24,184 nucleotides of DNA. It comes from a virus. Lineage: Duplodnaviria > Caudoviricetes. This document shows, piece after piece, positions 1,817 through 24,184 of this stretch. Each line of letters starts with the position of its first letter. Positions within the stretch are counted from its first letter, which is position 1. A program made the position numbers and the translations under genes. The stretch spans positions 1 through 24,184 of the IMG/VR virus record IMGVR_UViG_3300030108_001765. One strand, written 5' to 3'. The notes under the pieces were generated by a model, which searched no databases, had not been told where the DNA came from, and worked only from the letters and a program-made list of their open reading frames with translations.

Positions 1817-2188
1817 CTATAACAACAACTTAGGTGTAAATTCCTGATCTGCTTCAATGACTCTTACTTCTAAAGGATAGAGACTTTTCTTTCTTTCTAT
1901 AGACTCTTTCTCTTCAGAACTAACTACTTCATATACAATACCTTCATCAGCATCAATAACATCAGCTCTCAATCCTGAATCATCAAATATAGCTTCTGTG
2001 TAAAACTCATGATCCCATTCTTTTAACGTCTTACAGATCTGAAACTTCATAGTAATATGTTCATCTGTTTCATTCTTTCCCCAACGTAAAGCATTTCTAT
2101 TTCTATTAGAGATCCTTAACAATCTACTAATATTATTACGTTGATACTGTTTGTTAAAATTGTTTTTATTGCTCAAAGGACTCTCCAC
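1817..2188 (-). CDS. Putative PD-(D/E)XK-fold nuclease
   Basis: Pattern H..K...TEA...RADVID....YEVVSSE resembles a restriction-endonuclease-like catalytic core. Confidence 0.5.
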   Translation of the reverse strand: MESPLSNKNNFNKQYQRNNISRLLRISNRNRNALRWGKNETDEHITMKFQICKTLKEWDHEFYTEAIFDDSGLRADVIDADEGIVYEVVSSEEKESIERKKSLYPLEVRVIEADQEFTPKLLL

Positions 2189-2696
2189 ACGAAGGACAAG
2201 TTATCATATTTGGTTTAGGATCTTCAGCAGTCTTGTTTGGTCCTATATCCATTTCTTCCCAATCAAATTCTAATAACTTTTCAAAGTTCTTCATTTCTTC
2301 TGTTGTGTCAGGCATAAACGTTTGTAATGTCTCAATGTCATATTCCTTTAGAACTTCATTAGCAAACAGATCTGCATAAGCTAAAAGATCATCATCAAAC
2401 CATTTATGATTACGTCTTCTTGCTATAGTAATTGCTTTTGCTTTACTAATAGATCCAAAGTTCTCACATGGAACCTTTTTCCACTTTAATAATTTAAGAG
2501 CCTCTAAACGATGATTACCATCTATAACTTCAAACTTATCATCAAGTTCTCTAACAGCTACAACCCCAGCGGATTGATCTTCTATAATGGATTTACTTAG
2601 TTTAGTGATCTCTTCAGAGGTTCCATCACTTTTGTAATTCCAGTCAGCAGGGACTAAGTCCTCAATGTTCATTTCTACTAATTGTGTTTTATTCAT
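2166..2696 (-). CDS. ParB/Srx N-terminal domain protein with C-terminal CxxC
   Basis: IEDLVPADWNY, FEVIDGNHRLEALKLL (ParB DGxHR motif), C-terminal CPSCG. Confidence 0.88.
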   Translation of the reverse strand: MNKTQLVEMNIEDLVPADWNYKSDGTSEEITKLSKSIIEDQSAGVVAVRELDDKFEVIDGNHRLEALKLLKWKKVPCENFGSISKAKAITIARRRNHKWFDDDLLAYADLFANEVLKEYDIETLQTFMPDTTEEMKNFEKLLEFDWEEMDIGPNKTAEDPKPNMITCPSCGESFEQ

Positions 2697-2702
2697 ATTT
2701 CC

Positions 2703-3599
2703 TCAATTTTGATTTCCAGCGTAACGGCTATATTGTTCTTTTAATGTCATTACAGATATAGCATAATTACCATAATAAGTCATATTCTGTGACTCTTTTC
2801 CTGTTGGAACTATTTGATCCTGTAAAAATATCTTTTCTATTTCAGGAACTAACAGATCGGCATGTTTCTTCATATTTCTTACTTGTACTTTTTTAAATCC
2901 ATCATTAGACAATACTGTTCCAACTCCATATCTGTTTACAGCATTCCATGAAGTAGAATCTGAACTATCACAGAATTTAGTTACTTTCATTATATCTTTT
3001 TGTGTACATCCTAACAGATGGATCTTAATATCAGGATTAACTTTTTTTATGATCTGACAAAGGCCTAAAGTTCTCATAGGTAGGTTATCCCAGCCTAATG
3101 ATCTAAACTCAGGAATACTTAACGCTATGTATTTTGACCAAGCCGCCATTTCTTTTAATCCATTAATACCATCATCTATATGCCAAACATTCATTTGTTG
3201 ATTAGGTAAAGCTTCTCTAAGTTCTTTTCTTAACTTCCAAGCATGATCAACTCCTAAGATCTTCTGACAGTCTACTTCTACAACTGTTCCTTTATATCCT
3301 GTTTCTAAAACAAAACGAATTATAGCTTTCTGCCAAGCTTCTACAAATTTAGCATCACGAGGTCCAGCGTGTGCTCCAAACATTAATGTAAATAAACCTG
3401 AATCCATTATAACGTGCTTGTAATGTTTATCTAAGTAATTGGCAACCTTAGGAATTGTCATCTTAAATTTGACTGCTTTTATGTCAAATTGATCTGCAAT
3501 AAAAGGAAAAACTGAAAAAAGACCATACTGAACTCCACATACCTTATTCAATACACAGGCAGAGTCCATTTGTTCTAATCCAGCAAAATGAACTTTCAC
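2703..3599 (-). CDS. dpdA: DpdA/TGT-like DNA-guanine transglycosylase
   Basis: TGT-family motifs IMDSGLFT, IHLLG and DSSDSTSW; directly downstream of 7-deazaguanine precursor genes. Confidence 0.78.
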   Translation of the reverse strand: MKVHFAGLEQMDSACVLNKVCGVQYGLFSVFPFIADQFDIKAVKFKMTIPKVANYLDKHYKHVIMDSGLFTLMFGAHAGPRDAKFVEAWQKAIIRFVLETGYKGTVVEVDCQKILGVDHAWKLRKELREALPNQQMNVWHIDDGINGLKEMAAWSKYIALSIPEFRSLGWDNLPMRTLGLCQIIKKVNPDIKIHLLGCTQKDIMKVTKFCDSSDSTSWNAVNRYGVGTVLSNDGFKKVQVRNMKKHADLLVPEIEKIFLQDQIVPTGKESQNMTYYGNYAISVMTLKEQYSRYAGNQN

Positions 3600-3946
3600 T
3601 TCTCAACCCTTCCTCCGCCTTTACCATCTTCCAAAACCTCTACCCATTCGCAGTCAAATTCTTCTAAAAGTATTTCTGCTATCATCTCACAGCTACGGTT
3701 ATTAAATTGTGCGGGAGACCCAAATGTGGTTTGGATCCAATTCTTAACCTTGTCTGTGTAGATAAAGATCTCTTTTTCTCTGTTAGCATGATCTACAGTC
3801 CATGCCATTCTGATCTGAAATAAATGTCTGTGATCATATTGTAAAAACTCTACAGGCTCAGGAGCCATAGGGTAATGATGAAATCCTTCTACTTCAAAGT
3901 CAGCTATCATAAATTGTTTAACTGGAACTTTTTTGTAGATCTCCAT
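3596..3946 (-). CDS. dpdL: QueD-paralogous T-fold protein, DpdL-like (predicted CDG decarboxylase)
   Basis: EGFHHY, LQYDHRHLF (LxxxHRHxF) and SCEMIA...EDG. It is a second QueD-like gene next to a canonical queD. The DpdL signature is recalled from memory, not checked. Confidence 0.65.
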   Translation of the reverse strand: MEIYKKVPVKQFMIADFEVEGFHHYPMAPEPVEFLQYDHRHLFQIRMAWTVDHANREKEIFIYTDKVKNWIQTTFGSPAQFNNRSCEMIAEILLEEFDCEWVEVLEDGKGGGRVEK

Positions 3947-4494
3947 TACTCCTCCGTAAACTCTAAGAATTCATCTCTTGCTTTATGATCGTCTTTCATG
4001 AATCCCATTAATGAACTTGTAACCATGTTTCCTTCCTTTTTAATTCCTCTCATTTCCTGACATAGATGTCTTCCTCTACATACAACTCCAAGACCTCTTG
4101 GTTTTAATTCATTCCATAAAAACTTAGCAATATCTTCTGTCATGTATTCTTGAGTATTTAGTCTTCTTGAAAACTTATCTAACGTTCTTGCTAATTTAGA
4201 GATCCCTACTATTTTACCATCTGGAATGTAACCTATAGAACAAGTTCCAAAGAACGGGATCATATGATGCTCACAGAATGAATAAAATTTTAAACCTTTT
4301 GATATTATCATCTGATCGTAATCTTTATTCTTAAAAGTAGTGCAAGTAAATTCATCTGGGTTCAAAAACTCGTTCCATAACTTAGCTACTCTTTTTGGTG
4401 TGTCTTTCAATCCGTCTCTTTCAGGATCTTCTCCTATTGAAAGTAACAAATCATATACTGCTTCTTCTGTTAGTTCTCTATTGTTTCTTGACAT
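3946..4494 (-). CDS. folE: GTP cyclohydrolase I (type IA)
   Basis: GEDPERDGLKDTPKRVAK, SFCEHHMIPFFG, GISKLAR, HLCQEMRG. Confidence 0.97.
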   Translation of the reverse strand: MSRNNRELTEEAVYDLLLSIGEDPERDGLKDTPKRVAKLWNEFLNPDEFTCTTFKNKDYDQMIISKGLKFYSFCEHHMIPFFGTCSIGYIPDGKIVGISKLARTLDKFSRRLNTQEYMTEDIAKFLWNELKPRGLGVVCRGRHLCQEMRGIKKEGNMVTSSLMGFMKDDHKARDEFLEFTEE

Positions 4495-4496
4495 AT

Positions 4497-5444
4497 TTAT
4501 GTTCCTATTGCGTTACCAAATAAATAACAATGTAATCTACCTGAGACATTGTAACCTCTCTCGTATGCCATCTTAGCTATTTTACCAGCTGAAGCTTCTT
4601 GTTCTTCTACTGTAGCTCCTACAGGCATAATGTAAACAGGCCAATCAATTCCTTCATCTCTATATAATTGAAGAACCTCTTCCATCTCATTCCATTGTTC
4701 TCTTTTTGATCCTAAAACAAACTTCAATTGTCCTGATGGTGATCCTATTGAAGTTCTTCTGTTAACTATGTTTCCTAAATTGTAATAATCTTTTACTACT
4801 TTTGGTTTTATAGCTCGTTCTCTTTTCTCTCCTGCAACTGTCCATAGTTTAGGAGATACAGAAAAAAATACAGGAATGTTCCATTTATTCCTGTCGAGTA
4901 AATAATCTGTAAATTCTGTAGACAATTTCTGAGTCCCATTAGTCTCCCATGTAATACATTTAGGTGTAATTAAATAATCCCATTCTTCGTTCATTTCTAT
5001 TACACATTTCTGAGCAGATCTCATTAATGGTTCACCTCCTGTAATACAAAGGTGTGCTGTTTGTTTTGATCTGGGGTGATAGAAACCTCCTATAGGATTA
5101 GTATCAGTAATAGCTACTTCATTTATTTTTTTAACTATTTCTTTAGCTGTAGCTTGTTTCATTAAATGTTTAAACTTAGATGACCAAGTGTAAGAACTAT
5201 CACAACCTTTCTCCCACACAGGCAGATCTTCTACCTTCTCTATTCCTTCCAGATCATAATCCTTGTATGGCAATTCATAAGACTCAGGATCGGAAGGATC
5301 TAATTGTCCAAAACCATTACATTGTAAATTACAACCAAAGAATCTTATCCACAAAGTATGTGATCCTGTATAGTAACCTTCTCCTTGTATAGAATTGAAA
5401 ATCTCAGAATAAGTATATTTTCTTGGTAAATGAGGATCGCTCAT
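4497..5444 (-). CDS. queE: 7-carboxy-7-deazaguanine synthase (radical SAM)
   Basis: SEIFNSIQGEG, IRFFGCNLQC...CDS, ITGGEP, ETNGT, SVSPK, RLH; CX3CX38C cluster motif. Confidence 0.93.
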   Translation of the reverse strand: MSDPHLPRKYTYSEIFNSIQGEGYYTGSHTLWIRFFGCNLQCNGFGQLDPSDPESYELPYKDYDLEGIEKVEDLPVWEKGCDSSYTWSSKFKHLMKQATAKEIVKKINEVAITDTNPIGGFYHPRSKQTAHLCITGGEPLMRSAQKCVIEMNEEWDYLITPKCITWETNGTQKLSTEFTDYLLDRNKWNIPVFFSVSPKLWTVAGEKRERAIKPKVVKDYYNLGNIVNRRTSIGSPSGQLKFVLGSKREQWNEMEEVLQLYRDEGIDWPVYIMPVGATVEEQEASAGKIAKMAYERGYNVSGRLHCYLFGNAIGT

Positions 5445-5884
5445 AATCTTCTTCCAAAAGTGGCACTATTGGATCCATGTTCAAAACATTCCACAGATAC
5501 TAATCTAACTCTTCCTGTAGTTTCATGATCTATTTTATTACACCAATATGAAAAAACAAATTCAGCAAAAGCTTCACAACCTACATTTCTTAGGATCCTA
5601 ACATTAGCTATATCTGTAAGATCCTTGAGTCTTTCAATTTCAGGATCATCTGAAGCTACCATCATTACATGATCGAAATGCTTTTCTAAAAATGCTTTGA
5701 TAGGTTTCATTCCTCCAAAGTCATATACCCAATTTCTGTCGTCAAGAGTTTGGGCCTCGAATGTGAATCTAAATCCTAAACTATAACCATGAATTAGTTT
5801 ACAATGAGAGTCAGCTCTCCATTGTCTAAATGCACATGAGAGACCCTTTTCGTTCCCATAGGTCTTCGTCACTCTATAAGTCAT
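5441..5884 (-). CDS. queD: 6-carboxy-5,6,7,8-tetrahydropterin synthase
   Basis: HCKLIHGY, DFGG, FDH, GCEAFAE, FEHGSNSA. Confidence 0.93.
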   Translation of the reverse strand: MTYRVTKTYGNEKGLSCAFRQWRADSHCKLIHGYSLGFRFTFEAQTLDDRNWVYDFGGMKPIKAFLEKHFDHVMMVASDDPEIERLKDLTDIANVRILRNVGCEAFAEFVFSYWCNKIDHETTGRVRLVSVECFEHGSNSATFGRRL

Positions 5885-6024
5885 TCAATCTTCTCTACCT
5901 TTTCTCTTATTGTTTCTCTTAACAGATCTGAAACAGGCCATCTTTGTTTCTTAGCATGATCCTTAAACTTTTTCCAAATTTCTGAGTATTCGTCTGTAAT
6001 TGTAAGCAAATATGTCTGTGACAT
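5881..6024 (-). CDS. Ribbon-helix-helix transcription regulator (47 aa)
   Basis: Hand-translated MSQTYLLTITDEYSEIWKKFKDHAKKQRWPVSDLLRETIREKVEKIE*. Beta-strand plus two helices with SDLLRETI; ATGA overlap with queD. Confidence 0.75.
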   Translation of the reverse strand: MSQTYLLTITDEYSEIWKKFKDHAKKQRWPVSDLLRETIREKVEKIE

Positions 6025-6042
6025 AATATACGATTGTATAGG

Positions 6043-6059
6043 TATATATAATAATATAT
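6043..6059 (-). promoter_or_regulatory. Archaeal-type TATA promoter for the modification/packaging operon (leaderless)
   Basis: TTATATAT at 6051-6044 in an AT block, about 19 nt before ATG 6024; no SD. Confidence 0.55.
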
Positions 6060-6064
6060 CTCAA

Positions 6065-6901
6065 TTAATACCCATCATAACAATCACAAGGCATAGGATC
6101 ATTTTCTTCTGGAACTTCACACGAGTCCATGTAGTCAAAAATATTAGTCTGAGTCTCTATTTCTCTTTTTAACCAATCTAACCTGTTAGGTTTAGCTCTT
6201 ACAAATAAAGGAAATTCTGGAAACTTTTTACTGTTAATTTCTAATTCTAAAGATTTGTTAAAAAGTTCGGGAGACTTATGATAAAGATCTATCCAACTTT
6301 TTTTGCTTTGAAATGGACAAAAATAACATCCTGACTTCTTAGGGTTAGGCCATCCATATTCTTCAATAATTCTACGGCATCCTTCTCGATCTATCTCCCA
6401 GTCAATTAAAGGGTATTTTTTATTTGGATATAGGTAGATCATCTCTCCCGTTTCAGGATCCTCTACTTGTTTAGCTCTATGACTCTCTCCTGAATCTATT
6501 CCTATCAATTCTAAAGAGTCAGGGTATTTTTCTTTGACTAATCTTGTAATTGGTATAATCTTAAAATTATCTGTGCAAGATCGTTTCCATACTGAAGGAA
6601 CTGACCGAGTATAAGTGTACCAATCATATATAGTTACTTTTTGACCTTCTTCCCAATCTCCTTTCTGAACTGCACCTACTCGAGGTCCAGCTTTGTAAAA
6701 AACTATTTCAAAAGGAATATTATGATCTTCACAAAAAGGTTTGACGTATTGATCTATAAACTCATATGTGTAAGGTTGTTCTGATCCTGTGTCAGCAAAT
6801 ATAACAGCATCCAATTGTTTACCTCTATTGATCCATTCTAACAATAATGCAGTAGAGTTTGTCCCTCCTCCATAACTCAGTATAGTTGTTTTAGTCTTCA
6901 T
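6065..6901 (-). CDS. PAPS-reductase-like PP-loop (adenine nucleotide alpha-hydrolase) protein with Cys clusters
   Basis: SYGGGTNSTAL, FADTGSE, CTDNFKIIPI, YPLIDW, KSGCYFCPF, terminal CDC. Confidence 0.8.
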   Translation of the reverse strand: MKTKTTILSYGGGTNSTALLLEWINRGKQLDAVIFADTGSEQPYTYEFIDQYVKPFCEDHNIPFEIVFYKAGPRVGAVQKGDWEEGQKVTIYDWYTYTRSVPSVWKRSCTDNFKIIPITRLVKEKYPDSLELIGIDSGESHRAKQVEDPETGEMIYLYPNKKYPLIDWEIDREGCRRIIEEYGWPNPKKSGCYFCPFQSKKSWIDLYHKSPELFNKSLELEINSKKFPEFPLFVRAKPNRLDWLKREIETQTNIFDYMDSCEVPEENDPMPCDCYDGY

Positions 6902-7859: not shown

Positions 7860-7884
7860 ATATGAGGTTATATATCAATCTATA

Positions 7885-7986
7885 TTAACAGTCTCCATAA
7901 ACTTCACCGCATTGACTACAACAGTTTTCAAACAACTCTACGCCACACGCTGGACAAGCACATTCATCCATTTCTGTAACACTCAT
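7885..7986 (-). CDS. Zn-ribbon microprotein (33 aa)
   Basis: Hand-translated MSVTEMDECACPACGVELFENCCSQCGEVYGDC*; GGTGA SD upstream. Confidence 0.55.
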   Translation of the reverse strand: MSVTEMDECACPACGVELFENCCSQCGEVYGDC

Positions 7987-8117
7987 CGTTCACCTGTAAT
8001 GTAATCTTCAACTGAACAATTAGGACAGTTATGTATATTTGGGTTTATATGATCTGGATCTACATTTACTGTAATCTCATATAAAACAGTATCACAAGTA
8101 GCACAAGCTATTATCAT
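7983..8117 (-). CDS. Zn-ribbon microprotein (44 aa)
   Basis: MIIACATCD...HNCPNCSVEDYITGER*; ATGA overlaps at both ends. Confidence 0.6.
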   Translation of the reverse strand: MIIACATCDTVLYEITVNVDPDHINPNIHNCPNCSVEDYITGER

Positions 8118-12626: not shown

Positions 12627-15286
12627 TAAGTTAAAGCCCTCTTTTCACCTATGATCATAAATTTAAAGGATCCATTATAGAACTTAGAGTCTGAAGCTCC
12701 TTTGTTTAATGATCCATTTACTAATTTAATTATAAGATCACGATGAGAAGAAGTAATAGTATCTAATCGTTTTGTATTAATAAACATATAATCATATCTA
12801 TTTCCATCCATAATATTCCACAAGATCCTAAGACCTGCTTGAGTTATAGCTTTTATTTTTAGATCTATTTGAGGAGTTCCAGAATTTGTTCTTACTACAC
12901 CTACAGGATATATTTGTTTACCAATAGGAACTCTACCTTCTAGACCTCCTGTTCGAGAATAGTTAGAACTTTCTAAAGCTATGTCTCCTTGATCTATTAA
13001 TGTATCTAAATCTACACTTTTAGGTTTTTGATAGTTAATATACAAATTACTTGTAGCTGTAGTAGTGCCGACTTGATCTTGAGAAACTCCTGAAGTAATT
13101 GTTACTGTTGCTGAAGCTGGAGATCCAACATGATACAATACAAAAGGAATAGCTGCTCTTTCTCTTGTGTCATGACAAACAGTAATATTTTGACCTGCAG
13201 TATCTCCTGAACCTGAAATAGTTTCCTCAAAAGTAATTTTGTTTCCAAGATCTCCAGCACCTCCAGTAATTGTCTTGATAGTATAATATCCATTAAATTC
13301 AGTAGTAGAACTAAATGTAACATAAATCTTGTCACCTACTTCAAACATTCCATCTCTTCTAATGTAAGCATCTCCTGATCCTGTATATTCTATATCATTG
13401 TTAGTCTTGTCTAATATTCCATCATTAGTACCTGGAAATGCTAAACTCTTGTAACCTCCAAAAGCATAATCAGAGTCAATGTAAGCAAGGTGTTTAGCTA
13501 TAAATCTATGAGTTCCAGCTATATGATCTATACGTCCAACAAAAAAGTGACAAGGGTCAGAAGTGTCTTGACCTGCCGTCACAACAACCATATCTACATG
13601 TTTAAAATAATTAGTAGTTCCTGTTGGAGAATCATCTGCAAAAGTATTGTTGTAGACAACTTCTCCAGTTATATTTTCAGACACATATCTATAGTAACCT
13701 GTTTCGGATCCAAATTCTGCTGCTGTATCTGCTACTGCAGTTTCTCCGCCACCATCGTCATAAAAGGAAGCTATTCCAAATATTGTAAGAGTAGAGTTGT
13801 TAGATCTGGACATTTTAACAGCTAACTTTTTAGATCCATCCTCAAGTTCAGTATTGTCTATGTCTGTAGCATTAGCAGTAGCAAATACTCCATTTGCAGG
13901 ATCTAAAAAATGTTTCCATTTATGATGATATATTTCTACACCTGAATCTCCTGTTACAGATCTGACACTATTGACTACATTAACATCATCAAACAAACCA
14001 TACTCAGTTAATGACATAGTTTTCTTAGCTGCCTGACCTACTGCAGTAGCAGATCTGGCAGAAACGTTAGGAACAGAAACTCCTAAAGAACTAATTAATT
14101 TAAGATCAGACTTGAATCCTTGTTCGTCCTCGATCCCGATCCAAATATATTTTTGTCCGCTGGAACCAAAGATATGTTTAATGGTTGTAGAGTTAGTTGT
14201 AGCTGTTAATGTTTTAGTTACTAAGTTTGGTGAATTGTAAGTTTCACCTGACGAAGCTCCTTCCCATATAACATGGATTTTCTTAAATTGACCTGAATGA
14301 ACACTATTAGTAGATGGAACAGTTATTACTCCTTCGTCTCCTGTATTAGTAAAAGCAGTCGAATAAGATACAGTTCCTATTTTAGGTCTTGAAATTTTTA
14401 TAGTGTTAGATCCTTGAGAAGTAGAATTTGTAAATGTAGCATTTTCCATAAAAGCTCTAACGTAGTAAGCGGTGTCTTCAGAAGCTAAGAAATCAGCACT
14501 TGAAACCTGAGCTAAATCTGCACCATCAAAACTTTCAAAGTTAACGTTTGAGATTTCTGCCTGATGAGTAGATGAAGCGTTTATTGTAGCTGAAGTTGAC
14601 CAATTCAAAGTTATTCCTGTATCTGTATTTGTAGGCGTAGTTTTGTTAACTATAAGAGCATTAGTTCCTGAAGGAGCTATAGATATGTTTGGAGTAGTTG
14701 GTTTAGGTTGAGTATAAGTAATAGTATAGGTAGGAACGTTTCCTGAACCTCCTGTATTATTGTCATCTTCAAAAGTAGCTAATGTGGATCCATAATTATT
14801 GTCATCATGCAATACAGAAAAATGATAGCTTTCTCCAAAAGAAATGCCCATAGCTGTAACTACATTGTTAGGAACTGTAAACACTTTATCTCCTGTTGCA
14901 CCTGTTCCTGTTGCTACATTAGAACAAAAATGAGTGTGAGCTTTGCTACTTTCGTCAGATCTAAGTTCCCATGTATAATCAGTTAATCCATGAGGAGAAG
15001 TATATGTGGCCTCGTTTTCAGCAAAAGAACTATTTAATCCAAATAATGAAATTGTAGAATTAGAAGTTCCTGATCTTTTATTTAAGGTTATAGCAATTGA
15101 CTCCACTATAGAATCTGACGGAATCCCTAATGCAGCAGTAGTTGGAATATCTAAACCTAATAATATTATTTTATCGTTTCCATCATGTGCTCCTCTTATT
15201 TCTAAAACAGTTCCGTTTTTGTTGGTTCCAGCGTTTTGATCTACCCATGTACAATTATCAATAACTAATTCGCCTGTTGTTCCCAT
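12626..15286 (-). CDS. Large distal tail protein (beta-sandwich domains, DNRLRE-like N-terminus)
   Basis: T/S/G-rich 886 aa between tape measure and hub; N-terminal TWV...LLGLDIP...IPSDSIVESIAITL...ENEATY pattern. Confidence 0.6.
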   Translation of the reverse strand: MGTTGELVIDNCTWVDQNAGTNKNGTVLEIRGAHDGNDKIILLGLDIPTTAALGIPSDSIVESIAITLNKRSGTSNSTISLFGLNSSFAENEATYTSPHGLTDYTWELRSDESSKAHTHFCSNVATGTGATGDKVFTVPNNVVTAMGISFGESYHFSVLHDDNNYGSTLATFEDDNNTGGSGNVPTYTITYTQPKPTTPNISIAPSGTNALIVNKTTPTNTDTGITLNWSTSATINASSTHQAEISNVNFESFDGADLAQVSSADFLASEDTAYYVRAFMENATFTNSTSQGSNTIKISRPKIGTVSYSTAFTNTGDEGVITVPSTNSVHSGQFKKIHVIWEGASSGETYNSPNLVTKTLTATTNSTTIKHIFGSSGQKYIWIGIEDEQGFKSDLKLISSLGVSVPNVSARSATAVGQAAKKTMSLTEYGLFDDVNVVNSVRSVTGDSGVEIYHHKWKHFLDPANGVFATANATDIDNTELEDGSKKLAVKMSRSNNSTLTIFGIASFYDDGGGETAVADTAAEFGSETGYYRYVSENITGEVVYNNTFADDSPTGTTNYFKHVDMVVVTAGQDTSDPCHFFVGRIDHIAGTHRFIAKHLAYIDSDYAFGGYKSLAFPGTNDGILDKTNNDIEYTGSGDAYIRRDGMFEVGDKIYVTFSSTTEFNGYYTIKTITGGAGDLGNKITFEETISGSGDTAGQNITVCHDTRERAAIPFVLYHVGSPASATVTITSGVSQDQVGTTTATSNLYINYQKPKSVDLDTLIDQGDIALESSNYSRTGGLEGRVPIGKQIYPVGVVRTNSGTPQIDLKIKAITQAGLRILWNIMDGNRYDYMFINTKRLDTITSSHRDLIIKLVNGSLNKGASDSKFYNGSFKFMIIGEKRALT

Positions 15287-15864
15287 TAAGTTATACTCCC
15301 TACATAACCTGACACACGGTCTCCTATATCAGATATTACGTCAAACTTAGAAGTTAAATTATCTAATCCATCAGCTAAACCTTCTATGTAATTAATAATT
15401 CCTTGTATAGCATCTCCCATAGCTCTAAAAGAATCTGTAATTATTCCTGTCTTTAATTCTAAGTAAGTAAGTCCTAAGATTAACAAAGCAATAGCAGCTA
15501 CAACTAAGATTATAGGATTCAATAACAATACAGCGTTAAAGATCTTAAACCCTGAAATAACTAATTCCAAAGGCCCAATAAGTAATTCCATTTGTTTTTG
15601 AGTTCTTAGTAATGACTCGTACTGTTCTTCGTTAACCATGTTAAGATCTTTAGCAGCATTTATTGATTTACTGTAACCTCCAACTAATCCATTAAGACCA
15701 CTTGTTAATTGTTCCATAGCTCCCATTAACACTTGAGCTTGGAAAGCAGCAGAGTCCTGTTCTTTTCTCAGATCTGACGTAGACTGTTCAGCTTTCTTCA
15801 TGCCTTGTTCATAATTAGTAGTGTCAGCTTCCATTACAATATTCAAGGCATCAACAGTTGTCAT
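15286..15864 (-). CDS. Very short tape measure protein
   Basis: N-terminal LNIVMEADTTNYEQGMKKA; hydrophobic LNPIILVVAAIALLI segment typical of TMPs; position after tube and chaperone. Confidence 0.75.
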   Translation of the reverse strand: MTTVDALNIVMEADTTNYEQGMKKAEQSTSDLRKEQDSAAFQAQVLMGAMEQLTSGLNGLVGGYSKSINAAKDLNMVNEEQYESLLRTQKQMELLIGPLELVISGFKIFNAVLLLNPIILVVAAIALLILGLTYLELKTGIITDSFRAMGDAIQGIINYIEGLADGLDNLTSKFDVISDIGDRVSGYVGSIT

Positions 15865-17864: not shown

Positions 17865-18289
17865 TAGGCGATCACCTCATAGCTTGTTAATTCCAAATCT
17901 AAAATATACCGATACCATCGTTTATTCCGATCTGTGTTATCTACCCGTGAAACAGGCCTTAACAATTGATAACTTGAATTAGGATCTATTTCTTTTAATC
18001 TTAAGATCCTTAATACCTCGCCATACATATCTCGTAAATGAGTTCTGCTTTTTGGTGTAGACATATCTACACTCACTCTCCAAGAACCTCGATCTAATGT
18101 CTTACCTACCAAACCAACTTCGTGTGTGCCTGAAACTTCATAGCACTTTATTAGATCTTTTTTAATCATGTTTAACTTACCAATATCCCAAGAGTCTCCG
18201 ATCTTAGGAGTCCTGCTATTAGTGTTACTTGCATTCCAATTAGAATTTAATAATCCTGAAACTGTTGTTACAGGATCAGCTATAACCAT
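17864..18289 (-). CDS. Tail terminator / completion protein
   Basis: 141 aa alpha/beta protein immediately upstream of the tail tube. Confidence 0.55.
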   Translation of the reverse strand: MVIADPVTTVSGLLNSNWNASNTNSRTPKIGDSWDIGKLNMIKKDLIKCYEVSGTHEVGLVGKTLDRGSWRVSVDMSTPKSRTHLRDMYGEVLRILRLKEIDPNSSYQLLRPVSRVDNTDRNKRWYRYILDLELTSYEVIA

Positions 18290-18984
18290 TATGCTCTCCT
18301 CAAGAAACTGTTATCTATTTCTATTCTATTTGACACTTTAGCAATAGGAATAATTCTTCCCTGTCTTGATCTTAATTTTAATATATCCATAGCTTGAGTT
18401 TTCAGATCTGCACTACTAATTAACTGAGCATCTGAATTATCAAACATACTTACTACGTCTGCTGCAGTCATTAACATAGTGGCTTTTCTAATATCTGCTG
18501 GTGTTGAAGCCGTACCATAAGTGTACGTTGCATAAGCTTTTACTCCTGTAGCAGATGAATTTAAATTAAATTGTTGATAACTTTTCAAATAGATCTTACC
18601 GTTTTCAGAATCTACCCAATAGTCTCCACTTAAAGGATCTGTAAATGTCCCTGCTGTGTAATCAGAAGATGCTACATAATCTACAAAGGAACCTCCTTTC
18701 CAAACATGTAAGTTAGTCAAAGAAATTAATGGATAGTGATCTAACTGAATTACTCCTCTGTTTCCAATAGTGTTAGAAGCTACTGTCTGAACTTTTAAAG
18801 GTTCTTTAGTTACAGTTCCAGCTCTACTGCTACTCCATGCATGATCTGTATATTCATCAATAAATGTTTCGTTGTTTTCAATTAGCAATTCAACTTGTGA
18901 AGATGTTGGAGTTGTTGATCCTGAAAAGGCATCCATCTGAAGAAAGTCAGAGACTTGTCCATGTGTAGTGTAGTAAACAGCCAT
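18289..18984 (-). CDS. Head-tail adaptor (HK97 gp6/SPP1 gp15-like)
   Basis: YTTHGQV, FIDEYT, TYTYG...PADIRKATMLM. Confidence 0.72.
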   Translation of the reverse strand: MAVYYTTHGQVSDFLQMDAFSGSTTPTSSQVELLIENNETFIDEYTDHAWSSSRAGTVTKEPLKVQTVASNTIGNRGVIQLDHYPLISLTNLHVWKGGSFVDYVASSDYTAGTFTDPLSGDYWVDSENGKIYLKSYQQFNLNSSATGVKAYATYTYGTASTPADIRKATMLMTAADVVSMFDNSDAQLISSADLKTQAMDILKLRSRQGRIIPIAKVSNRIEIDNSFLRRA

Positions 18985-19766
18985 CAGAGGAAATGAGTTA
19001 GAGCTGAGTTAACTAACTTTTCACTTGTTGTTGCTACAACCATTCCATTCATATCAATTGGTTGTCCTGCCATATTCCAACCTATAGCTCCTACAGGTAA
19101 TGTTGTATATCCTTGTTGAACTGCTAAAGGTGGAGGACCTCCTCCGTTTGCTGTATAGTATTGTTCACCATTAGCTAATTGATCAATTTGAGGGGGTGGT
19201 AATTGCCAAGCTTGTGGTTGTTGCATTGATGCTCCAGTTCCAATTCCAAACCATGTCCAAGGTTTTAGCATACTTGCTCCACCTTGTTGCATCATAGGTT
19301 GTTGACCATAAGGATTCATTCCCATTTGTTGTTGGTAAGGATTCATCTGTTGAGGAGGTGGAGCTTGTTGAACGGTATTGGTTTCTCCATATGGATTGTC
19401 CCAATTAGTTATAGAATGGTGAGCATTTCCTTCCTGATTGCTCCACTCCTCATGTAAACTTAATCTTGCATTTAATTCATTAGCAGCTTCATCTCCTAAC
19501 ATAGCTCGAGGTTGCCAATCGATCTGACTTTCACTAACTTGTTTTAAGAAATTTATATGATCATCTAATTCTGTAGGTAACTGAACGTCAGTAGCTTCAC
19601 ACAATCCTTTCAACATAACCATGTAGTCATGTATAATTGGGTAAAGATATTGTACAGTTCTCATTACTGTGTTCTCTGCGACACGAGCATCAAAGTCAGG
19701 ATGCTGTATTCGATCAACCGCTACGGGGTTGAGATAACCTGCTGGGGATCCGTGGTAACCACTCAT
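18984..19766 (-). CDS. Hypothetical protein with Q/P/G/M-rich low-complexity region
   Basis: Helical N-terminal half followed by QQAPPPQQMNPYQQQMGMNPYGQQPMMQQGG; coupled to the adaptor gene. Confidence 0.75.
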   Translation of the reverse strand: MSGYHGSPAGYLNPVAVDRIQHPDFDARVAENTVMRTVQYLYPIIHDYMVMLKGLCEATDVQLPTELDDHINFLKQVSESQIDWQPRAMLGDEAANELNARLSLHEEWSNQEGNAHHSITNWDNPYGETNTVQQAPPPQQMNPYQQQMGMNPYGQQPMMQQGGASMLKPWTWFGIGTGASMQQPQAWQLPPPQIDQLANGEQYYTANGGGPPPLAVQQGYTTLPVGAIGWNMAGQPIDMNGMVVATTSEKLVNSALTHFL

Positions 19767-20140
19767 TCCATAAAACTCCTATTCATTAACATAACTTCGG
19801 CTGTCATATATTCATCATAATCTCGTTGATGCATTATACAAAAACCTCCTCCTGTAAAAGATCCACAATACGGACATTCGTCTTTATTATGTCTCCTAAC
19901 CAAACCAAACCATTTACGGGTGAGACGAGAATGCTTACTTCTTAGACGTTTAACGTAGTAACTCAATTCTCTGTCGTCCATTTGATTTTTGTCCTGTAGC
20001 TTAGAGGTAGACACCACATATTGTTGACGCTGAGTTACTATTGGTTGATTAGGAGTCGAAGAGATCTCTTGTTTAGGATCTTGAGAAATTTGTTGACCTA
20101 CTTTTGGTCTTTTCATTGTAACCATCGGGGGAACAGTCAT
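19763..20140 (-). CDS. Hypothetical protein with C-terminal Zn-finger
   Basis: H...CPYC...CIMH; disordered Q/P-rich N-terminus. Confidence 0.7.
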   Translation of the reverse strand: MTVPPMVTMKRPKVGQQISQDPKQEISSTPNQPIVTQRQQYVVSTSKLQDKNQMDDRELSYYVKRLRSKHSRLTRKWFGLVRRHNKDECPYCGSFTGGGFCIMHQRDYDEYMTAEVMLMNRSFME

Positions 20141-20163
20141 TATCAGATCTTATACACTTTCAG

Positions 20164-20171
20164 AATATAAA
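20164..20171 (-). promoter_or_regulatory. TATA box (TTTATATT), leaderless promoter of the neck/tail operon
   Basis: 23 nt upstream of ATG 20140. Confidence 0.55.
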
Positions 20172-20192
20172 CCTAACTATGGTTTCCGTATT

Positions 20193-20576
20193 CTAAAGTC
20201 CTCCCTTTCTCATCATCTTTCCTGTTCGTATTGCAGCTTGACCAGCATGAACTGTAGGATCAAAAAACGCTTTAGCAATCAAAGCTTTCAATGTAGCTAA
20301 TGCAGCACTCAATATCATTAACATAAATAAGAATCCATTATAGATCCAAGCTACTCCCCAAACATACATAGCAGCATCTAAGAAATATTCTTCTAAAAAT
20401 AAACCTGCATATAGTCCTAAAGCTCCTGATCCTAACATAAAACCAAATAACCAAATTACTCTTTTCATCCACATCCATTCTATGTAACGAATAAAGTCAA
20501 CATCTGACTTACCTCCAGCTCCAAAGTTAGAAGGGTAACGATCTGGACTGAATAACATATTGCGAATAAACTTCAT
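20193..20576 (-). CDS. Two-TM membrane protein (holin-like topology)
   Basis: Two long hydrophobic segments and a basic C-terminus (RTGKMMRKGGL). Confidence 0.7.
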   Translation of the reverse strand: MKFIRNMLFSPDRYPSNFGAGGKSDVDFIRYIEWMWMKRVIWLFGFMLGSGALGLYAGLFLEEYFLDAAMYVWGVAWIYNGFLFMLMILSAALATLKALIAKAFFDPTVHAGQAAIRTGKMMRKGGL

Positions 20577-21403
20577 GGTCTTACCACATAGGACATATCT
20601 AAATAACTGTTTTGTTCTTTTGCTATTTCTGCATATACATCCGATTTAAACTTTCGTGTGATCTGATAAGCTACCTCATAACCTATTGGATCTACATCTC
20701 CGTTTCCAAGATCAATCCATTTAGGGTGATATGTGTAAACGACGACTTTCCTAAAAGACGGTCTAAAGTCCATTTCGTCAAAATACTCTACATATGATTC
20801 ATGATTAATCTCTTCATCTTGTAAAGATATAATTTGATTGTCATTTAAGAATCTTAATATTGTATTATTTATTTTATCAATAGGAACAGCTTTGCTAACA
20901 AATAAAGATGTCTTCCATCTAAAAACGTGTTCAGGAGTTAAGTTCTCTACTAAAGAATGTAACAATTCTTCACAGCTTATAATGACTTCAGACATATCAA
21001 AAGTTCTTACCTTGATTCCTCTAAAATTAAAATCTTTAGCTTTTCCTATAACTTTACCATTTTGATTACTGATCTGAATCCAATCATCTATAGCAAACTC
21101 TGTTTTGTAAGCTACAGTCATAAATGAAAAGGCATTGTTTAAAGGACTGTATTGAGAAAAAGCAGCATAAGTAATAGCTGCTAAACCTGCTACATTTTCG
21201 ATCTTGTTTAAATATCCTCCGTATAACAATACTCCTACACCAAAAATAATTATACCCATAACTCCGAAGATCTGAGTAGCTGCTTTAGTTTTAAGATCTC
21301 TAATTTTAAACGATCCTGCATTCTGATTACCTACGGCTTTTATTGCTCCTGTAGTTAAAATAAATACTACAATTGCCCATGCAAACAGAATAGCTGGATC
21401 CAT
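20573..21403 (-). CDS. MscS-family mechanosensitive channel-like protein
   Basis: Three N-terminal TM segments, then FAIDDWIQI...GKAKDFNFRGIKVRTFDMSEVIISCEELLHSLVENLT, matching the MscS beta-domain consensus (F.IGDWI...G.V..I..R.T.IRT.D...V.IPN..L....I.N). Confidence 0.78.
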   Translation of the reverse strand: MDPAILFAWAIVVFILTTGAIKAVGNQNAGSFKIRDLKTKAATQIFGVMGIIIFGVGVLLYGGYLNKIENVAGLAAITYAAFSQYSPLNNAFSFMTVAYKTEFAIDDWIQISNQNGKVIGKAKDFNFRGIKVRTFDMSEVIISCEELLHSLVENLTPEHVFRWKTSLFVSKAVPIDKINNTILRFLNDNQIISLQDEEINHESYVEYFDEMDFRPSFRKVVVYTYHPKWIDLGNGDVDPIGYEVAYQITRKFKSDVYAEIAKEQNSYLDMSYVVRP

Positions 21404-21873
21404 TAGTCCAACATCTCGGCTTCTTGAACAGGCTTGATTTCTCCAGTTACAGGATCAACATATTCTTTTTCATCTTGCGGAGGAATAAAGTTCTGCATCA
21501 TCTGTTGTGGAGGCATCTGTTGTTGCATCTGTTGTTGAGGCATCATCTGAGGCATCATCTGTTGAGGCATCATCTGAGGAGGAATCATCTGAGAGGGCAT
21601 ACCAAGAGGTTTAGCTTTCTCTCTTGATCTGGAAGATCTGCTCCTTTTAAGGTCGTCTAAACGTTCGGCAGTTAAGGAAGCGTTTGTCAAGATTGCAAAG
21701 GTAAAAGATCCTGAAACAGCTCCATACCAAATTGAATCTTGAGGATCCATAGATCCAACATACATTAGGGTAAATGCATTAGCTATAAACACTAACAAAC
21801 TTGCCATTCTATTATAGGATAATCTAACCTCATGAAGGTTGCGATCATCGGCCATATCATCGGCAAATACCAT
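21403..21873 (-). CDS. Two-TM membrane protein with M/Q/P-repeat tail
   Basis: Two hydrophobic helices, basic S/R patch, MPQQMMPQMM repeats, YVDPVTGEI motif. Confidence 0.75.
   Translation of the reverse strand: MVFADDMADDRNLHEVRLSYNRMASLLVFIANAFTLMYVGSMDPQDSIWYGAVSGSFTFAILTNASLTAERLDDLKRSRSSRSREKAKPLGMPSQMIPPQMMPQQMMPQMMPQQQMQQQMPPQQMMQNFIPPQDEKEYVDPVTGEIKPVQEAEMLD
21493..21600 (-). repeat. Imperfect in-frame tandem repeat (ATG-CCT-CAA/CAG-ATG units)
   Basis: Repeated gaggcatcatctg / catctgttg units of 12-15 nt on the + strand, encoding (M)MP(P)Q(Q). Confidence 0.85.
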
Positions 21874-21893
21874 AATACCCTAACGGAACGTAG

Positions 21894-21901
21894 CTATAAA
21901 A
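21894..21901 (-). promoter_or_regulatory. TATA box (TTTTATAG), leaderless promoter of the membrane cassette
   Basis: 20 nt upstream of ATG 21873. Confidence 0.5.
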
Positions 21902-21904
21902 GAA

Positions 21905-22190
21905 ATTCAAAATACCGACACGCAGGACAGACGTCTCGATGTCGCATCTTGAGTAGGGTATCAAAAGATAGCCGATCAATCAGAGGATGGAGGGATTTCG
22001 GCTCATTCTGATTACGTTGGCCCTTAAGGTTAATCCCGAACTTATTGATCAAGTAAGTACAGTTTTTACAGTCATATAAATGAAGTCTATATGTTAACTG
22101 CTCTGAACACCAACAACCTGCGTGTGTGTGCAGATCAAAGGTAGGTTCGATTAATACGCATTGGTTCTTACCAAACCGATGAGCTGCAAT
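21905..22190 (-). ncRNA. Candidate structured non-coding RNA (~280 nt), family not recognised; strand tentative
   Basis: No credible ORF and more GC-rich than the flanks. 9-bp long-range helix 21918-21926/22117-22125, several hairpins and a possible pseudoknot. TATA box upstream and T-rich tract downstream on the minus strand. Confidence 0.6.
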
Positions 22191-22207
22191 TTACATATTA
22201 TATATGT

Positions 22208-22215
22208 ATATATAA
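22208..22215 (-). promoter_or_regulatory. TATA box (TTATATAT) upstream of the candidate ncRNA
   Basis: Same octamer as at 6051-6044 and 11383-11376; about 19 nt before the first helix (22188). Confidence 0.5.
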
Positions 22216-22240
22216 CAGTTGCCTTGTTTAGTATATAAGT

Positions 22241-24184
22241 TTAGGATCCTGTAACTAATTCTAAAGCATTATCTAAAGCAGGTTTGGTTAATCTAAGATC
22301 ATCATCCCCTGCCTCATCTGCATCCAATAACTGCTGAGTGTCTAAGGTGTGATGGAATTGTCTTATGTTACCTGTACAATTAGTTACAGAACCTATTACC
22401 GTTAAATCACCTGTAACATCTAAATTACTTACATCTCCTACTATCTCAAATCCACCGCCAGCAGATTCAGGAATGTTAGTTGGAGTTTTTGTAGAATCTC
22501 CTGTCACTCTTGTGTTTCCTGTTGTAAGTGTTGATGAGGATGACATTGTCCAAGTATCTGATGCACCTGTGTAAAAATTTAAAGTAGAATTTCTTAAATC
22601 TAAAGTACCTGTATTTACATCTACATTTTTTGCAGCTATTGTATTACCATTAGCATTGTAGGTTGTACCGCTGTTTACTTCTAACTCTTCTGTAAGTGTA
22701 TGATTGCCTGTTGCTATTACTGAAGAAGATGAAGTTAAATCTAATCTTTTTGTAGTCAAAGCAGGTAGGTTTAAATCACCGCTACTTACCGATACTCCTA
22801 GTTTGTGTAATCCAGTCATAGTTCCTGAAAAGTCGTGAGTCTTACCTGCCGTTCGCAGTTTTAACTCTGAAATGCCTGAAGCTGTTAAAGTTCCAGTAAC
22901 TACAAGATTACCAAACAAATCTATAGTAGCTCCTGAAGCTACTCCAAAACCAGTTATACTAACTGTAGAACCTGCGTTGATTGTTATATTTTCGAAATTG
23001 TCAGAATTATAAAAATTCAAATTTTGTGTTCCAGACTTAGCAAATACAAGCGTAGAAGTGCCTTGTGTAAATGTTCCTCCTCCTACCCAGTTAGGTGCGT
23101 TACCTGCTGGGCCTAAAGTTCCTGTGTTACTGTTTGCACTTGAATCTGCTGTAGTATCACCATTACCGCCTGTGCCTTCATCAAATACATATTGAGCTAC
23201 TAATCCACCTTCTGAACTAGCTAACTGCGAAAACATATTACTACGGATTTCAGATTCAGATCTTATATCGTTAAACAGTCTTACCATATCAATAACACCA
23301 TCAAAAGTTTTAGATGTTGCTGCACTATTTCCAATTAATAATTCATTTGTTTCGTCAGAGTCTCTAACTCCTGTGGTTGAAAGTGCATTTGTTAAAGCGA
23401 CTTGTTTACCATTTACATACATTTTAGGTAAGTTTGAAGGTGAACCGTTATCATACGTAACAGCAACGTGATTCCATTTACCTATATCAATTACTCTATC
23501 TGTAGTAGAAAAGCTTGCATCCATACCATCAAAATATTGATACAATCTTAATTTCGTTTTAGAACCTGATTCTGCTTCTACATTAAAAATCCATCTGTGT
23601 TTGTCGGCAATACGACCATCGTTTCCTTCTCCGTCTGAATCTGGTTTAATCCAAGCTTCTACGGTTCCACCACTATCAAAAATATTGTCTATACTGCTGT
23701 CACTTCCACAGTCAACCTTACTAGCAACACCATCAAAGTCAAGCCCACTCTTACCAATAAGACCACCACTGGTAGTAAAATCTCCTGATACTGTAAGTGT
23801 ATCATCTGAACCATCTAACGTGCCTCCTGTTGCAACAGTTAAATTACCACATTTGTTATTAGTTCCATTTATACTTCTGTAAGTTCCTGAACCAACAATT
23901 AGATTACCTGCATAAGCTCCTGAATTATTCCAATCACAACTTGTCGTTCCATTGTTAATTAATATATTTGTTGTAGAATCTCCAGTAAAAGTAGAATCAT
24001 TAAAAGTCATATTCTCTCCGCCTGAACTTCCTGTAACAATAAATGAAGCTCCAGCTTCTCCTGTATAAGTTCCACTATCAATATTTATTCGTGGTGCGAT
24101 AAGCATACCTGCACCAAAGTCTACATTACAACTTCCTGAACTTGCTGTAAAATTACCAGAACATTCCATCCTCTGTCCATTCAG
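22241..24184 (-). CDS. LamG/concanavalin-A domain adhesin or fibre protein (5' end beyond the window)
   Basis: LDFDG...TVEAWIKP...WNHVAVTYD...MYVNG...FDGVIDMVRLFN...GLVAQYVFDEG, flanked by G/T/S-rich beta-helix-like repeats. The frame stays open past ATG 24169 to the window edge. Confidence 0.85.
   Translation of the reverse strand: MNGQRMECSGNFTASSGSCNVDFGAGMLIAPRINIDSGTYTGEAGASFIVTGSSGGENMTFNDSTFTGDSTTNILINNGTTSCDWNNSGAYAGNLIVGSGTYRSINGTNNKCGNLTVATGGTLDGSDDTLTVSGDFTTSGGLIGKSGLDFDGVASKVDCGSDSSIDNIFDSGGTVEAWIKPDSDGEGNDGRIADKHRWIFNVEAESGSKTKLRLYQYFDGMDASFSTTDRVIDIGKWNHVAVTYDNGSPSNLPKMYVNGKQVALTNALSTTGVRDSDETNELLIGNSAATSKTFDGVIDMVRLFNDIRSESEIRSNMFSQLASSEGGLVAQYVFDEGTGGNGDTTADSSANSNTGTLGPAGNAPNWVGGGTFTQGTSTLVFAKSGTQNLNFYNSDNFENITINAGSTVSITGFGVASGATIDLFGNLVVTGTLTASGISELKLRTAGKTHDFSGTMTGLHKLGVSVSSGDLNLPALTTKRLDLTSSSSVIATGNHTLTEELEVNSGTTYNANGNTIAAKNVDVNTGTLDLRNSTLNFYTGASDTWTMSSSSTLTTGNTRVTGDSTKTPTNIPESAGGGFEIVGDVSNLDVTGDLTVIGSVTNCTGNIRQFHHTLDTQQLLDADEAGDDDLRLTKPALDNALELVTGS

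Follow-up and report, generated by a model that had tools for sequence, protein, structure and literature searches.

A probable two-module non-coding RNA cassette in a variable slot of a marine tailed virus, and arrays of predicted RNA modules in its sister viruses

Bacteria and phages carry structured non-coding RNAs, GOLLD, ROOL and OLE among them, with functions that the available part of one account calls poorly understood (10.1101/2024.12.08.627333). Phages also use non-coding decoy RNAs against host defence: pseudo-ToxI of phage PhiTE and the Racrs mimic a short known host repeat (PMC3475682 and PMC10651486, in their available sections). The PeSL cassettes of T4-type phages, as the available text of PMC2839356 presents them, carry a sigma70-like promoter and terminator hairpins, shuffle protein genes, and vary between sister viruses at plastic sites. 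Finally, comparative predictions from the intergenic DNA of IMG/VR have yielded 10,006 candidate viral structured RNAs of 29–151 nt (Fremin et al. 2023, PMC10690425, available portions).

Here we describe an RNA from a virus fragment of 24,184 nt, the whole stretch of DNA analysed, which we call the window. By the tests listed below it belongs to none of the systems compared. It would resemble GOLLD, ROOL and OLE in being a structured viral RNA of poorly understood function, but it lacks an Rfam match, is about 270 nt long, stands behind an archaeal-type promoter and has relatives that exchange modules. With pseudo-ToxI and the Racrs it may share the role of an accessory viral RNA acting in trans against host defence, the functional model that we adopt by analogy, whereas it contains neither tandem, antitoxin-like repeats nor a credible match to a CRISPR repeat (best E 4.5). 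It is like the PeSLs a promoter-bearing cassette, but what is shuffled in this virus family is RNA modules of about 50–230 nt behind an archaeal-type TATA box. The set of Fremin et al. is similar in resting on comparative predictions from IMG/VR intergenic DNA, and it could overlap the sister modules described below; two motifs looked for are absent from six of the nine supplement files of PMC10690425. A phi29-type pRNA is recognized by its presence in every member of a group, and most relatives of this virus are without the window RNA. The Alu domain of signal recognition particle (SRP) RNA (Rfam RF01857) forms a self-closed stretch of some 60 nt at the 5′ end, ahead of a long-range closing helix. 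The window RNA is predicted to share this arrangement, with a closed 5′ domain of similar size, but it lacks the S domain motifs (helices 6 and 8) and any SRP model match, and an Alu-like fold is disfavoured.

The window belongs to a tailed DNA virus and has its genes on the minus strand, with the terminase at its left end, followed by FolE, QueE-like and QueD-like genes (the latter two scoring below curated cut-offs), tail genes, a membrane cassette whose second gene carries an MscS beta-domain (PF00924), and a LamG-domain gene. Complete relatives measure about 35–37 kb. Every organism-labelled run containing the stretch is marine, and neither a relative nor a provirus of the virus was found in the species genomes searched. 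The host is likely archaeal, judging from genes that are leaderless behind TTATATA boxes and from the head-tail gene at 18289-18984, whose matches among annotated phages are only haloarchaeal viruses (8 records, 28% identity); against a firm call, the top terminase matches are bacterial phages at about 25% identity. The available portions of PMC13108676 and PMC11706807 offer no basis for placing the virus among the named magrovirus families.

The first-pass annotation singled out the gap upstream of the membrane cassette as the largest non-coding gap of the window, and at 367 nt (21874-22240) it is the largest of the eight gaps over 40 nt in the gene list. Comparison with relatives places in this gap an optional insert of about 325 bp that includes both promoter boxes and the RNA (Table 1). 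Nine close relatives have the DNA upstream of the 21403-21873 gene in view, a count that excludes the uninformative partial loci L154–L156. In seven of them (L001, L147–L150, L152 and L153) the slot is empty, and about 45–55 bases join the LamG gene to the promoter of the 21403-21873 gene; in one the slot is identical (L146, 100% identity to the window over 6928 bases); and in one, L151, it holds a different, RNA-like non-coding cassette of 470 bases. In 23 further loci, found through the LamG C-terminus and including one that ends after 25 bases, there is no copy of the insert, and the readable slots are empty or hold a small protein gene; the slot thus appears to accept RNA or protein cargo. 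The insert lies between a retained GGATCC on one side and a retained TCGG on the other, and the empty site loses 3–5 bases, which the insert replaces. No target-site duplication was seen around the insert, and no mobility gene was found at the site. The 3′ edge of the insert coincides with the end of the helix that closes its large domain. In about 15 loci (L159, L161, L163–L165, L167–L174, L177 and L179) the slot after the LamG gene holds a gene for a small basic protein, helix-turn-helix-like by eye.

Table 1. Location of the insert, its predicted elements and neighbours in the window, and of the arrays in sister viruses (locus:positions)
Feature	Location	Strand	Remarks
Upstream gene	22241..24169	-	LamG-domain (PF13385), tail-region, conserved C-terminus
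Downstream gene	21403..21873	-	First of membrane cassette; leaderless
Optional insert	21919..22243	-	~325 bp, promoter boxes and RNA; by comparison with empty alleles
First TATA-like box	22231..22239	-	First 11 bases match start of L151 cassette
Likely RNA promoter, archaeal-type TATA box	22206..22215	-	Position 29 from its first base is G22187
Likely non-coding RNA	21918..22187	-	~270 nt; 43% GC (window 35%)
Module 1	22130..22187	-	58 nt; 4-bp closing helix from first base
AC-rich linker	22126..22129	-	Resembles inter-module linkers of relatives' arrays
Module 2	21918..22125	-	208 nt; predicted multibranch domain, 9-bp closing helix
Candidate pseudoknot strands	21992-97 and 22032-37 (21992..22037)	.	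Sequence complementarity
T-rich tail	21894..21914	-	Includes next gene's TATA box (21894-21901)
Stop-free frame	21894..22190	-	98 codons, no start codon at 5′ end; judged non-coding
Array behind one TATA box	L151:524-960	+	
Array behind one TATA box	L183:1467-2000	+	
Array behind one TATA box	L182:760-1803	-	
Array behind one TATA box	L233:2284-2800		
Array behind one TATA box	L234:1913-2660		
Array behind one TATA box	L236:2263-2875		
Array behind one TATA box	L237:2982-3165		
Array behind one TATA box	L242:1578-1700		
Array behind one TATA box	L232:10830-11016		
Array behind one TATA box	L239:11660-11800		
Array behind one TATA box	L248:3325-3440		

The TTATATAT box that had been noted on the minus strand is present and correctly spaced. 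The window and its relatives yielded 69 distinct TTATATA boxes with an ATG frame of at least 30 codons behind them; the ATG falls at position 29 in 24 of these and at position 30 in 14. Position 29, the commonest spacing for leaderless genes of the virus family, is where G22187 sits, which is also the first base of the helix closing module 1. All seven relatives' cassettes compared have ATT and then a purine at the same promoter position (G in six, A in L151). We infer that transcription starts at G22187, so that the locus has the TATA box at family spacing before a purine start that a discrete non-coding RNA gene of an archaeal virus should have. The first TATA-like box is likely a relic or a weak second promoter, because the base at position 29 counted from it is a T. 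Between the two boxes, the spacer (22216-22238) holds an 8-base word in common with the first hairpin of the arrays found after terminase genes (L183:1439-1485); this may be chance, or what a deletion has left of the same cassette head.

The stretch occurs in 20 sequencing runs, seven of them recorded as RNA. Contigs were placed for four of the seven RNA runs (metatranscriptomes of two studies), the runs having been chosen for containing the stretch and the small-share runs X17–X20 having been left out; the remaining three RNA runs and all DNA runs may hold strain variants of the stretch (word shares 0.22–0.68). All four sets of contigs lie inside 21941-22187, at 21942-22187 (X4), 21941-22187 (X5), 22001-22178 (X9) and 21961-22132 (X10), and no joints are listed for any of them. 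Contigs of this kind cannot reveal strand, start or level, and RNA libraries may contain DNA; that X4 and X5, two samples of one study, both stop at 22187 is a weak hint of a start there, one that agrees to the base with the independent promoter prediction. Random-primed cDNA tends to give a sharp 5′ end and to lose about 25 bases at the 3′ side, which is the pattern of the X4 and X5 contigs. The flanks of the RNA are without cover in X4, X9 and X10 (3 of 30 bins covered), although missing cover is no proof of a discrete RNA, and the flank cover in X5 is a single 53-base piece (21497-21549) with 10 differences and loose ends.

The RNA strand is likely the minus strand. On the side of the plus strand are helices containing G-U pairs, the whole-region fold and one variant. 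A plus-strand promoter at 21894-21902 was rejected as the primary one: it is the TATA box of the next gene read backwards, and a start from it would fall inside the closing helix. A scan for sigma-70 promoters and terminators gave results at chance level. What had been taken for a terminator, the T-rich tail, mainly overlaps the next gene's TATA box, which the empty-slot relatives retain. The tail may nonetheless end the RNA as well, serving both purposes, since it is T-richer in the window than in those relatives. The 3′ end of the RNA is placed by inference and may extend about 10–20 nt into the tail.

Insert boundaries, promoter spacing and RNA-library contigs together support the earlier proposal that this is a new non-coding RNA of the virus, driven by a dedicated promoter. 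The insert very probably makes a discrete non-coding RNA; as a cassette it is real and optional, is probably transcribed, and represents a new family. The other half of the first-pass interpretation, which named a ribozyme, a switch for the membrane cassette or a DNA origin as alternatives, fits poorly: the TATA box of the cassette is kept with or without the insert, and most relatives are without the insert.

The observations behind that interpretation held in part. All 13 sequence stretches named are in place, as are the gap and the box, while the terminator-like signal belongs largely to the next gene and the helices taken singly are no better than chance. The region has 27, 10, 3 and 1 perfect inverted repeats of at least 5, 6, 7 and 9 bp, and these counts are reached by 80, 29, 40 and 16 of 150 dinucleotide shuffles, respectively. 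Folding energy beats shuffles only mildly, with z ranging from about -1.3 to -2.4 according to the strand and the bounds chosen (-1.57 for the plus and -1.72 for the minus strand over the whole region, -1.7 to -2.4 for single modules). The sister array module B2, for which there is covariation support, reaches only -1.3 in the same test, so the weak z of the window RNA is no refutation of structure.

The minus-strand RNA is predicted to fold as two modules. Module 1 is modelled as an irregular rod (-13.5 kcal/mol) or, less likely, as a two-hairpin junction with kissing loops (-6.7 kcal/mol before tertiary terms). The 9-bp helix closing the large domain, which had been put forward as perfect pairing, forms in the whole fold with a probability of 0.97 on the plus strand, against 0.08 on the minus strand; folding the minus-strand module by itself raises the latter value to about 1.0, and the energy penalty for imposing the helix is 3 kcal/mol. 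Several helices rely on G-U pairs on the plus strand. Both modules have candidate loop-loop complementarity in sequence, and the C22037T variant (X9, X10) keeps the end pair of the candidate pseudoknot on the plus strand only, breaking it on the minus strand. The fold of the window RNA itself is without covariation support because no divergent homologue was found and one variant was seen.

Against the covariance models of Rfam 15, the check that the first-pass annotation had called for, the region has no credible match (the best reaches E 4.5 and 16 bits, where the cut-off is 37), and the sister cassettes have none either. The family models of GOLLD, ROOL and OLE gave no match, ARAGORN found neither tRNA nor tmRNA, and no ribozyme or group I intron core was found, either through Rfam or in a comparison by eye. 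Pattern searches returned only unrelated loci: 21 for the closing helix, 120 for the kissing loops (in 13 of the 64 parts of the collection), 29 for the pseudoknot and 67 for module 1, with a best profile E of 0.12. DNA searches of 1, 21 and 50 related virus records gave short matches only; the terminase loci (best 80 of 190) and the annotated phages held no homologue of the window RNA; and single-sequence covariance models for each module, which are insensitive, gave no match in 100 loci (1.22 Mb). The best guide-like match of an unpaired stretch, 20 of 23 bases to a portal gene, is at chance level, 5 of 20 shuffles doing as well. The word TACAGTCA, common to the plus strand and a conserved motif of the sister arrays, was likewise put down to chance, since its spacing and context differ. 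Structured RNAs of archaeal viruses are little catalogued, and the literature on them, with subscription papers and some supplements outside our scope, gave no account of this RNA family or of shuffled RNA-module arrays.

The cassette in the slot of L151 led to a larger class. Relatives of it at 70% identity lie after the terminase gene in other viruses, where most of the arrays of Table 1 directly follow that gene. Their layout is a single TATA box followed by consecutive domains of about 50–230 nt, each predicted to be closed and separated from the next by an AC-rich linker, with no closed ATG frame of more than 53 codons. Modules are shared in differing order and number by 10 terminase loci of the best 80 of 190, all in one subgroup (62–66% terminase identity); a 27-base match to one module also occurs in four loci that belong to another subgroup. 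Among 17 array segments, cut by hand from predicted folds, five are common to several genomes and 12 match their own genome only, so that the orphan status of the window RNA is the normal case. For ten of the 17, the z of the sense strand is at most -2.5, from 40 shuffles each.

No array has an Rfam match, and one family covaries. This is the family that fills the L151 slot, where 17 of 63 pairs are changed on both sides, a value reached by none of 500 shuffles and by no slid control, with 96% of the alignment cells kept paired. Because a single divergent row (L151) accounts for most of the double changes, and the same alignment served to predict the structure, the covariation is good but not independent support for the predicted fold. 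At 70% identity the family conserves both helices and unpaired motifs. The window RNA has in common with the arrays the promoter spacing, the variable slot, the closed modules and the AC-rich linker, while no similarity to known array modules was detected by sequence or by model. From promoter, slot and layout, then, it appears to be kin to the array class.

The modular RNA arrays of the sister viruses are a larger discovery than the window RNA, and they offer a dozen or more new candidate RNA folds, decoys or not. In L151 (804-955), in L183 (the module after the GC-closed domain) and in two copies in L182, a conserved 17-base lead-in and a clamp helix enclose four unrelated interiors, as if a fixed base carried variable cargo. 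The 27-base match in the other subgroup (L212:14950-15250 on the minus strand, also L214, L272 and L281) stands behind a TATA box and probably marks another RNA array, which would occupy a third position in the genome. In the closest relatives, L225–L229, a hairpin of about 65 bases lies some 140–220 bases past the terminase stop, with a TATA box on one side and, on the other, a small DNA-binding-like gene that precedes the portal; it is possibly a structured leader.

As to function, our leading proposal, held tentatively and at somewhat less than an even chance, is by analogy that the RNA is a trans-acting decoy and sequesters an RNA-binding protein of the host, for example a defence or regulatory factor. 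Action in trans is suggested because the sister family is found at two different places in the genome and the downstream cassette is served by its own promoter with or without the insert. The decoy reading draws on an accessory, orphan-rich, exchanged cargo with conserved unpaired motifs, together with the phage precedents, pseudo-ToxI and the Racrs; such cargo is the pattern that we would expect of arms-race genes. The TATA box at 22215 would draw in the RNA polymerase of the host; transcription would begin at G22187, pass through module 1, the linker of four bases and module 2, and end within the U-rich tail; and the RNA would then bind a host protein. A broader proposal is more doubtful: that strings of independently folding RNA modules are exchanged as cassettes behind one TATA promoter, each decoying a different host defence or regulatory protein, with the window RNA as a two-bead member of this new kind of viral gene. 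The arrays would then be an RNA counterpart of anti-defence islands, and modules that are decoys could serve as baits for defence and RNA-binding proteins of uncultured marine archaea. The predicted start base, the natural empty and alternative alleles and the presence in ocean RNA libraries make the window RNA ready for synthesis and probing.

Of the other readings, the most probable is a near-neutral or selfish cassette, spread by recombination at shared promoters and linkers, possibly with an unrecognised catalytic core, and of little benefit to the virus. The patchy occurrence, the exchange of cassettes at one slot and the shuffling of modules would fit it. Promoter-bounded shuffling of this sort is known from the PeSLs (PMC2839356, available sections). 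We think it unlikely: there is no Rfam ribozyme or intron match, the site is without a mobility gene or duplication, and the sister family preserves its helices and unpaired motifs at 70% identity.

Less likely again is regulation in cis, in which transcription running into the next gene's TATA box would delay or dampen the membrane cassette, or the RNA would be a leader. Only 17 bases separate the 3′ end of the RNA from that box, and L151 has a second type of RNA at the same slot. The cassette promoter is nevertheless intact in the empty-slot relatives, and the position of the L151 family after the terminase in other viruses argues for action independent of position.

We give a similarly low probability to a structural RNA of the particle or of the packaging motor (pRNA-like), or to a self-assembling RNA of the GOLLD or ROOL type, even though in 10 of the best 80 of 190 loci arrays stand directly after the terminase and both modules could make loop-loop contacts. 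Most relatives have no module or insert at these places, so an essential part of the motor is not to be expected, and no Rfam family matches. The giant RNAs of the GOLLD and ROOL type are moreover far longer than the window RNA.

That the stretch is instead a gene for a small cysteine-rich protein (the 98-codon frame, or 52 codons from a TTG), or the recent relic of one, is improbable. The frame has two CxxC motifs and shares its strand with all genes, and 98 stop-free codons arise in just 1.3% (three frames) or 2% (six frames) of 2000 shuffles, a rarity that remains beside an otherwise absent coding signal. Its codon-usage score is -0.23, close to off-frame DNA (-0.29, sd 0.21), whereas all 26 training genes score higher (minimum 0.04). 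The sole upstream ATG precedes the predicted start and is closed at once by a stop; the protein has nothing in Pfam, PHROGs, the Atlas or a homologue search among proteins of 44–140 residues; and the single variant, C22037T, changes Gly to Arg.

Mimicry of the SRP Alu domain by module 1, acting on the host ribosome, is slightly more improbable still. The module can be drawn as a closed two-hairpin junction, with the closing helix, four contiguous loop-loop pairs and a GUA-containing linker in the place of the GUA turn; this fold lies 6.8 kcal/mol above the rod, with an ensemble probability of 4e-6 when tertiary terms are left out, no SRP model matches at E up to 10, and a model of the fold finds nothing in the 1.22 Mb of relatives. 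A structured DNA origin or other DNA signal, with the RNA contigs as DNA carry-over, is the least probable reading, for the AT-rich palindromic stretch at 22189-22238 and the DNA that RNA libraries can contain stand against its absence from most relatives, near-complete records included, a contig end that fits the promoter-predicted start, and a GC skew that does not turn here.

Several other features of the window deserve mention. The membrane cassette (18984-21873) is a conserved set of five genes, an MscS beta-domain protein and Q/P/M-rich membrane proteins, at 50–95% identity across the family, and is possibly a lysis or membrane-remodelling module. A likely 7-deazaguanine DNA-modification cluster at 2166-6901, with ParB-like, FolE, QueE-like, QueD-like and PAPS-reductase-like genes and an unassigned gene of 298 aa (2703-3599), is only partly kept in the closest near-complete relative. 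The tape-measure-like gene (15286-15864, by PHROGs matches) encodes just 192 aa and is kept in relatives, which suggests a very short tail. The gaps 5885-6064 and 7860-8113 contain small unlisted genes: a leaderless frame of about 47 aa behind a TATA box, with a counterpart in relative G001, and short cysteine-rich frames.
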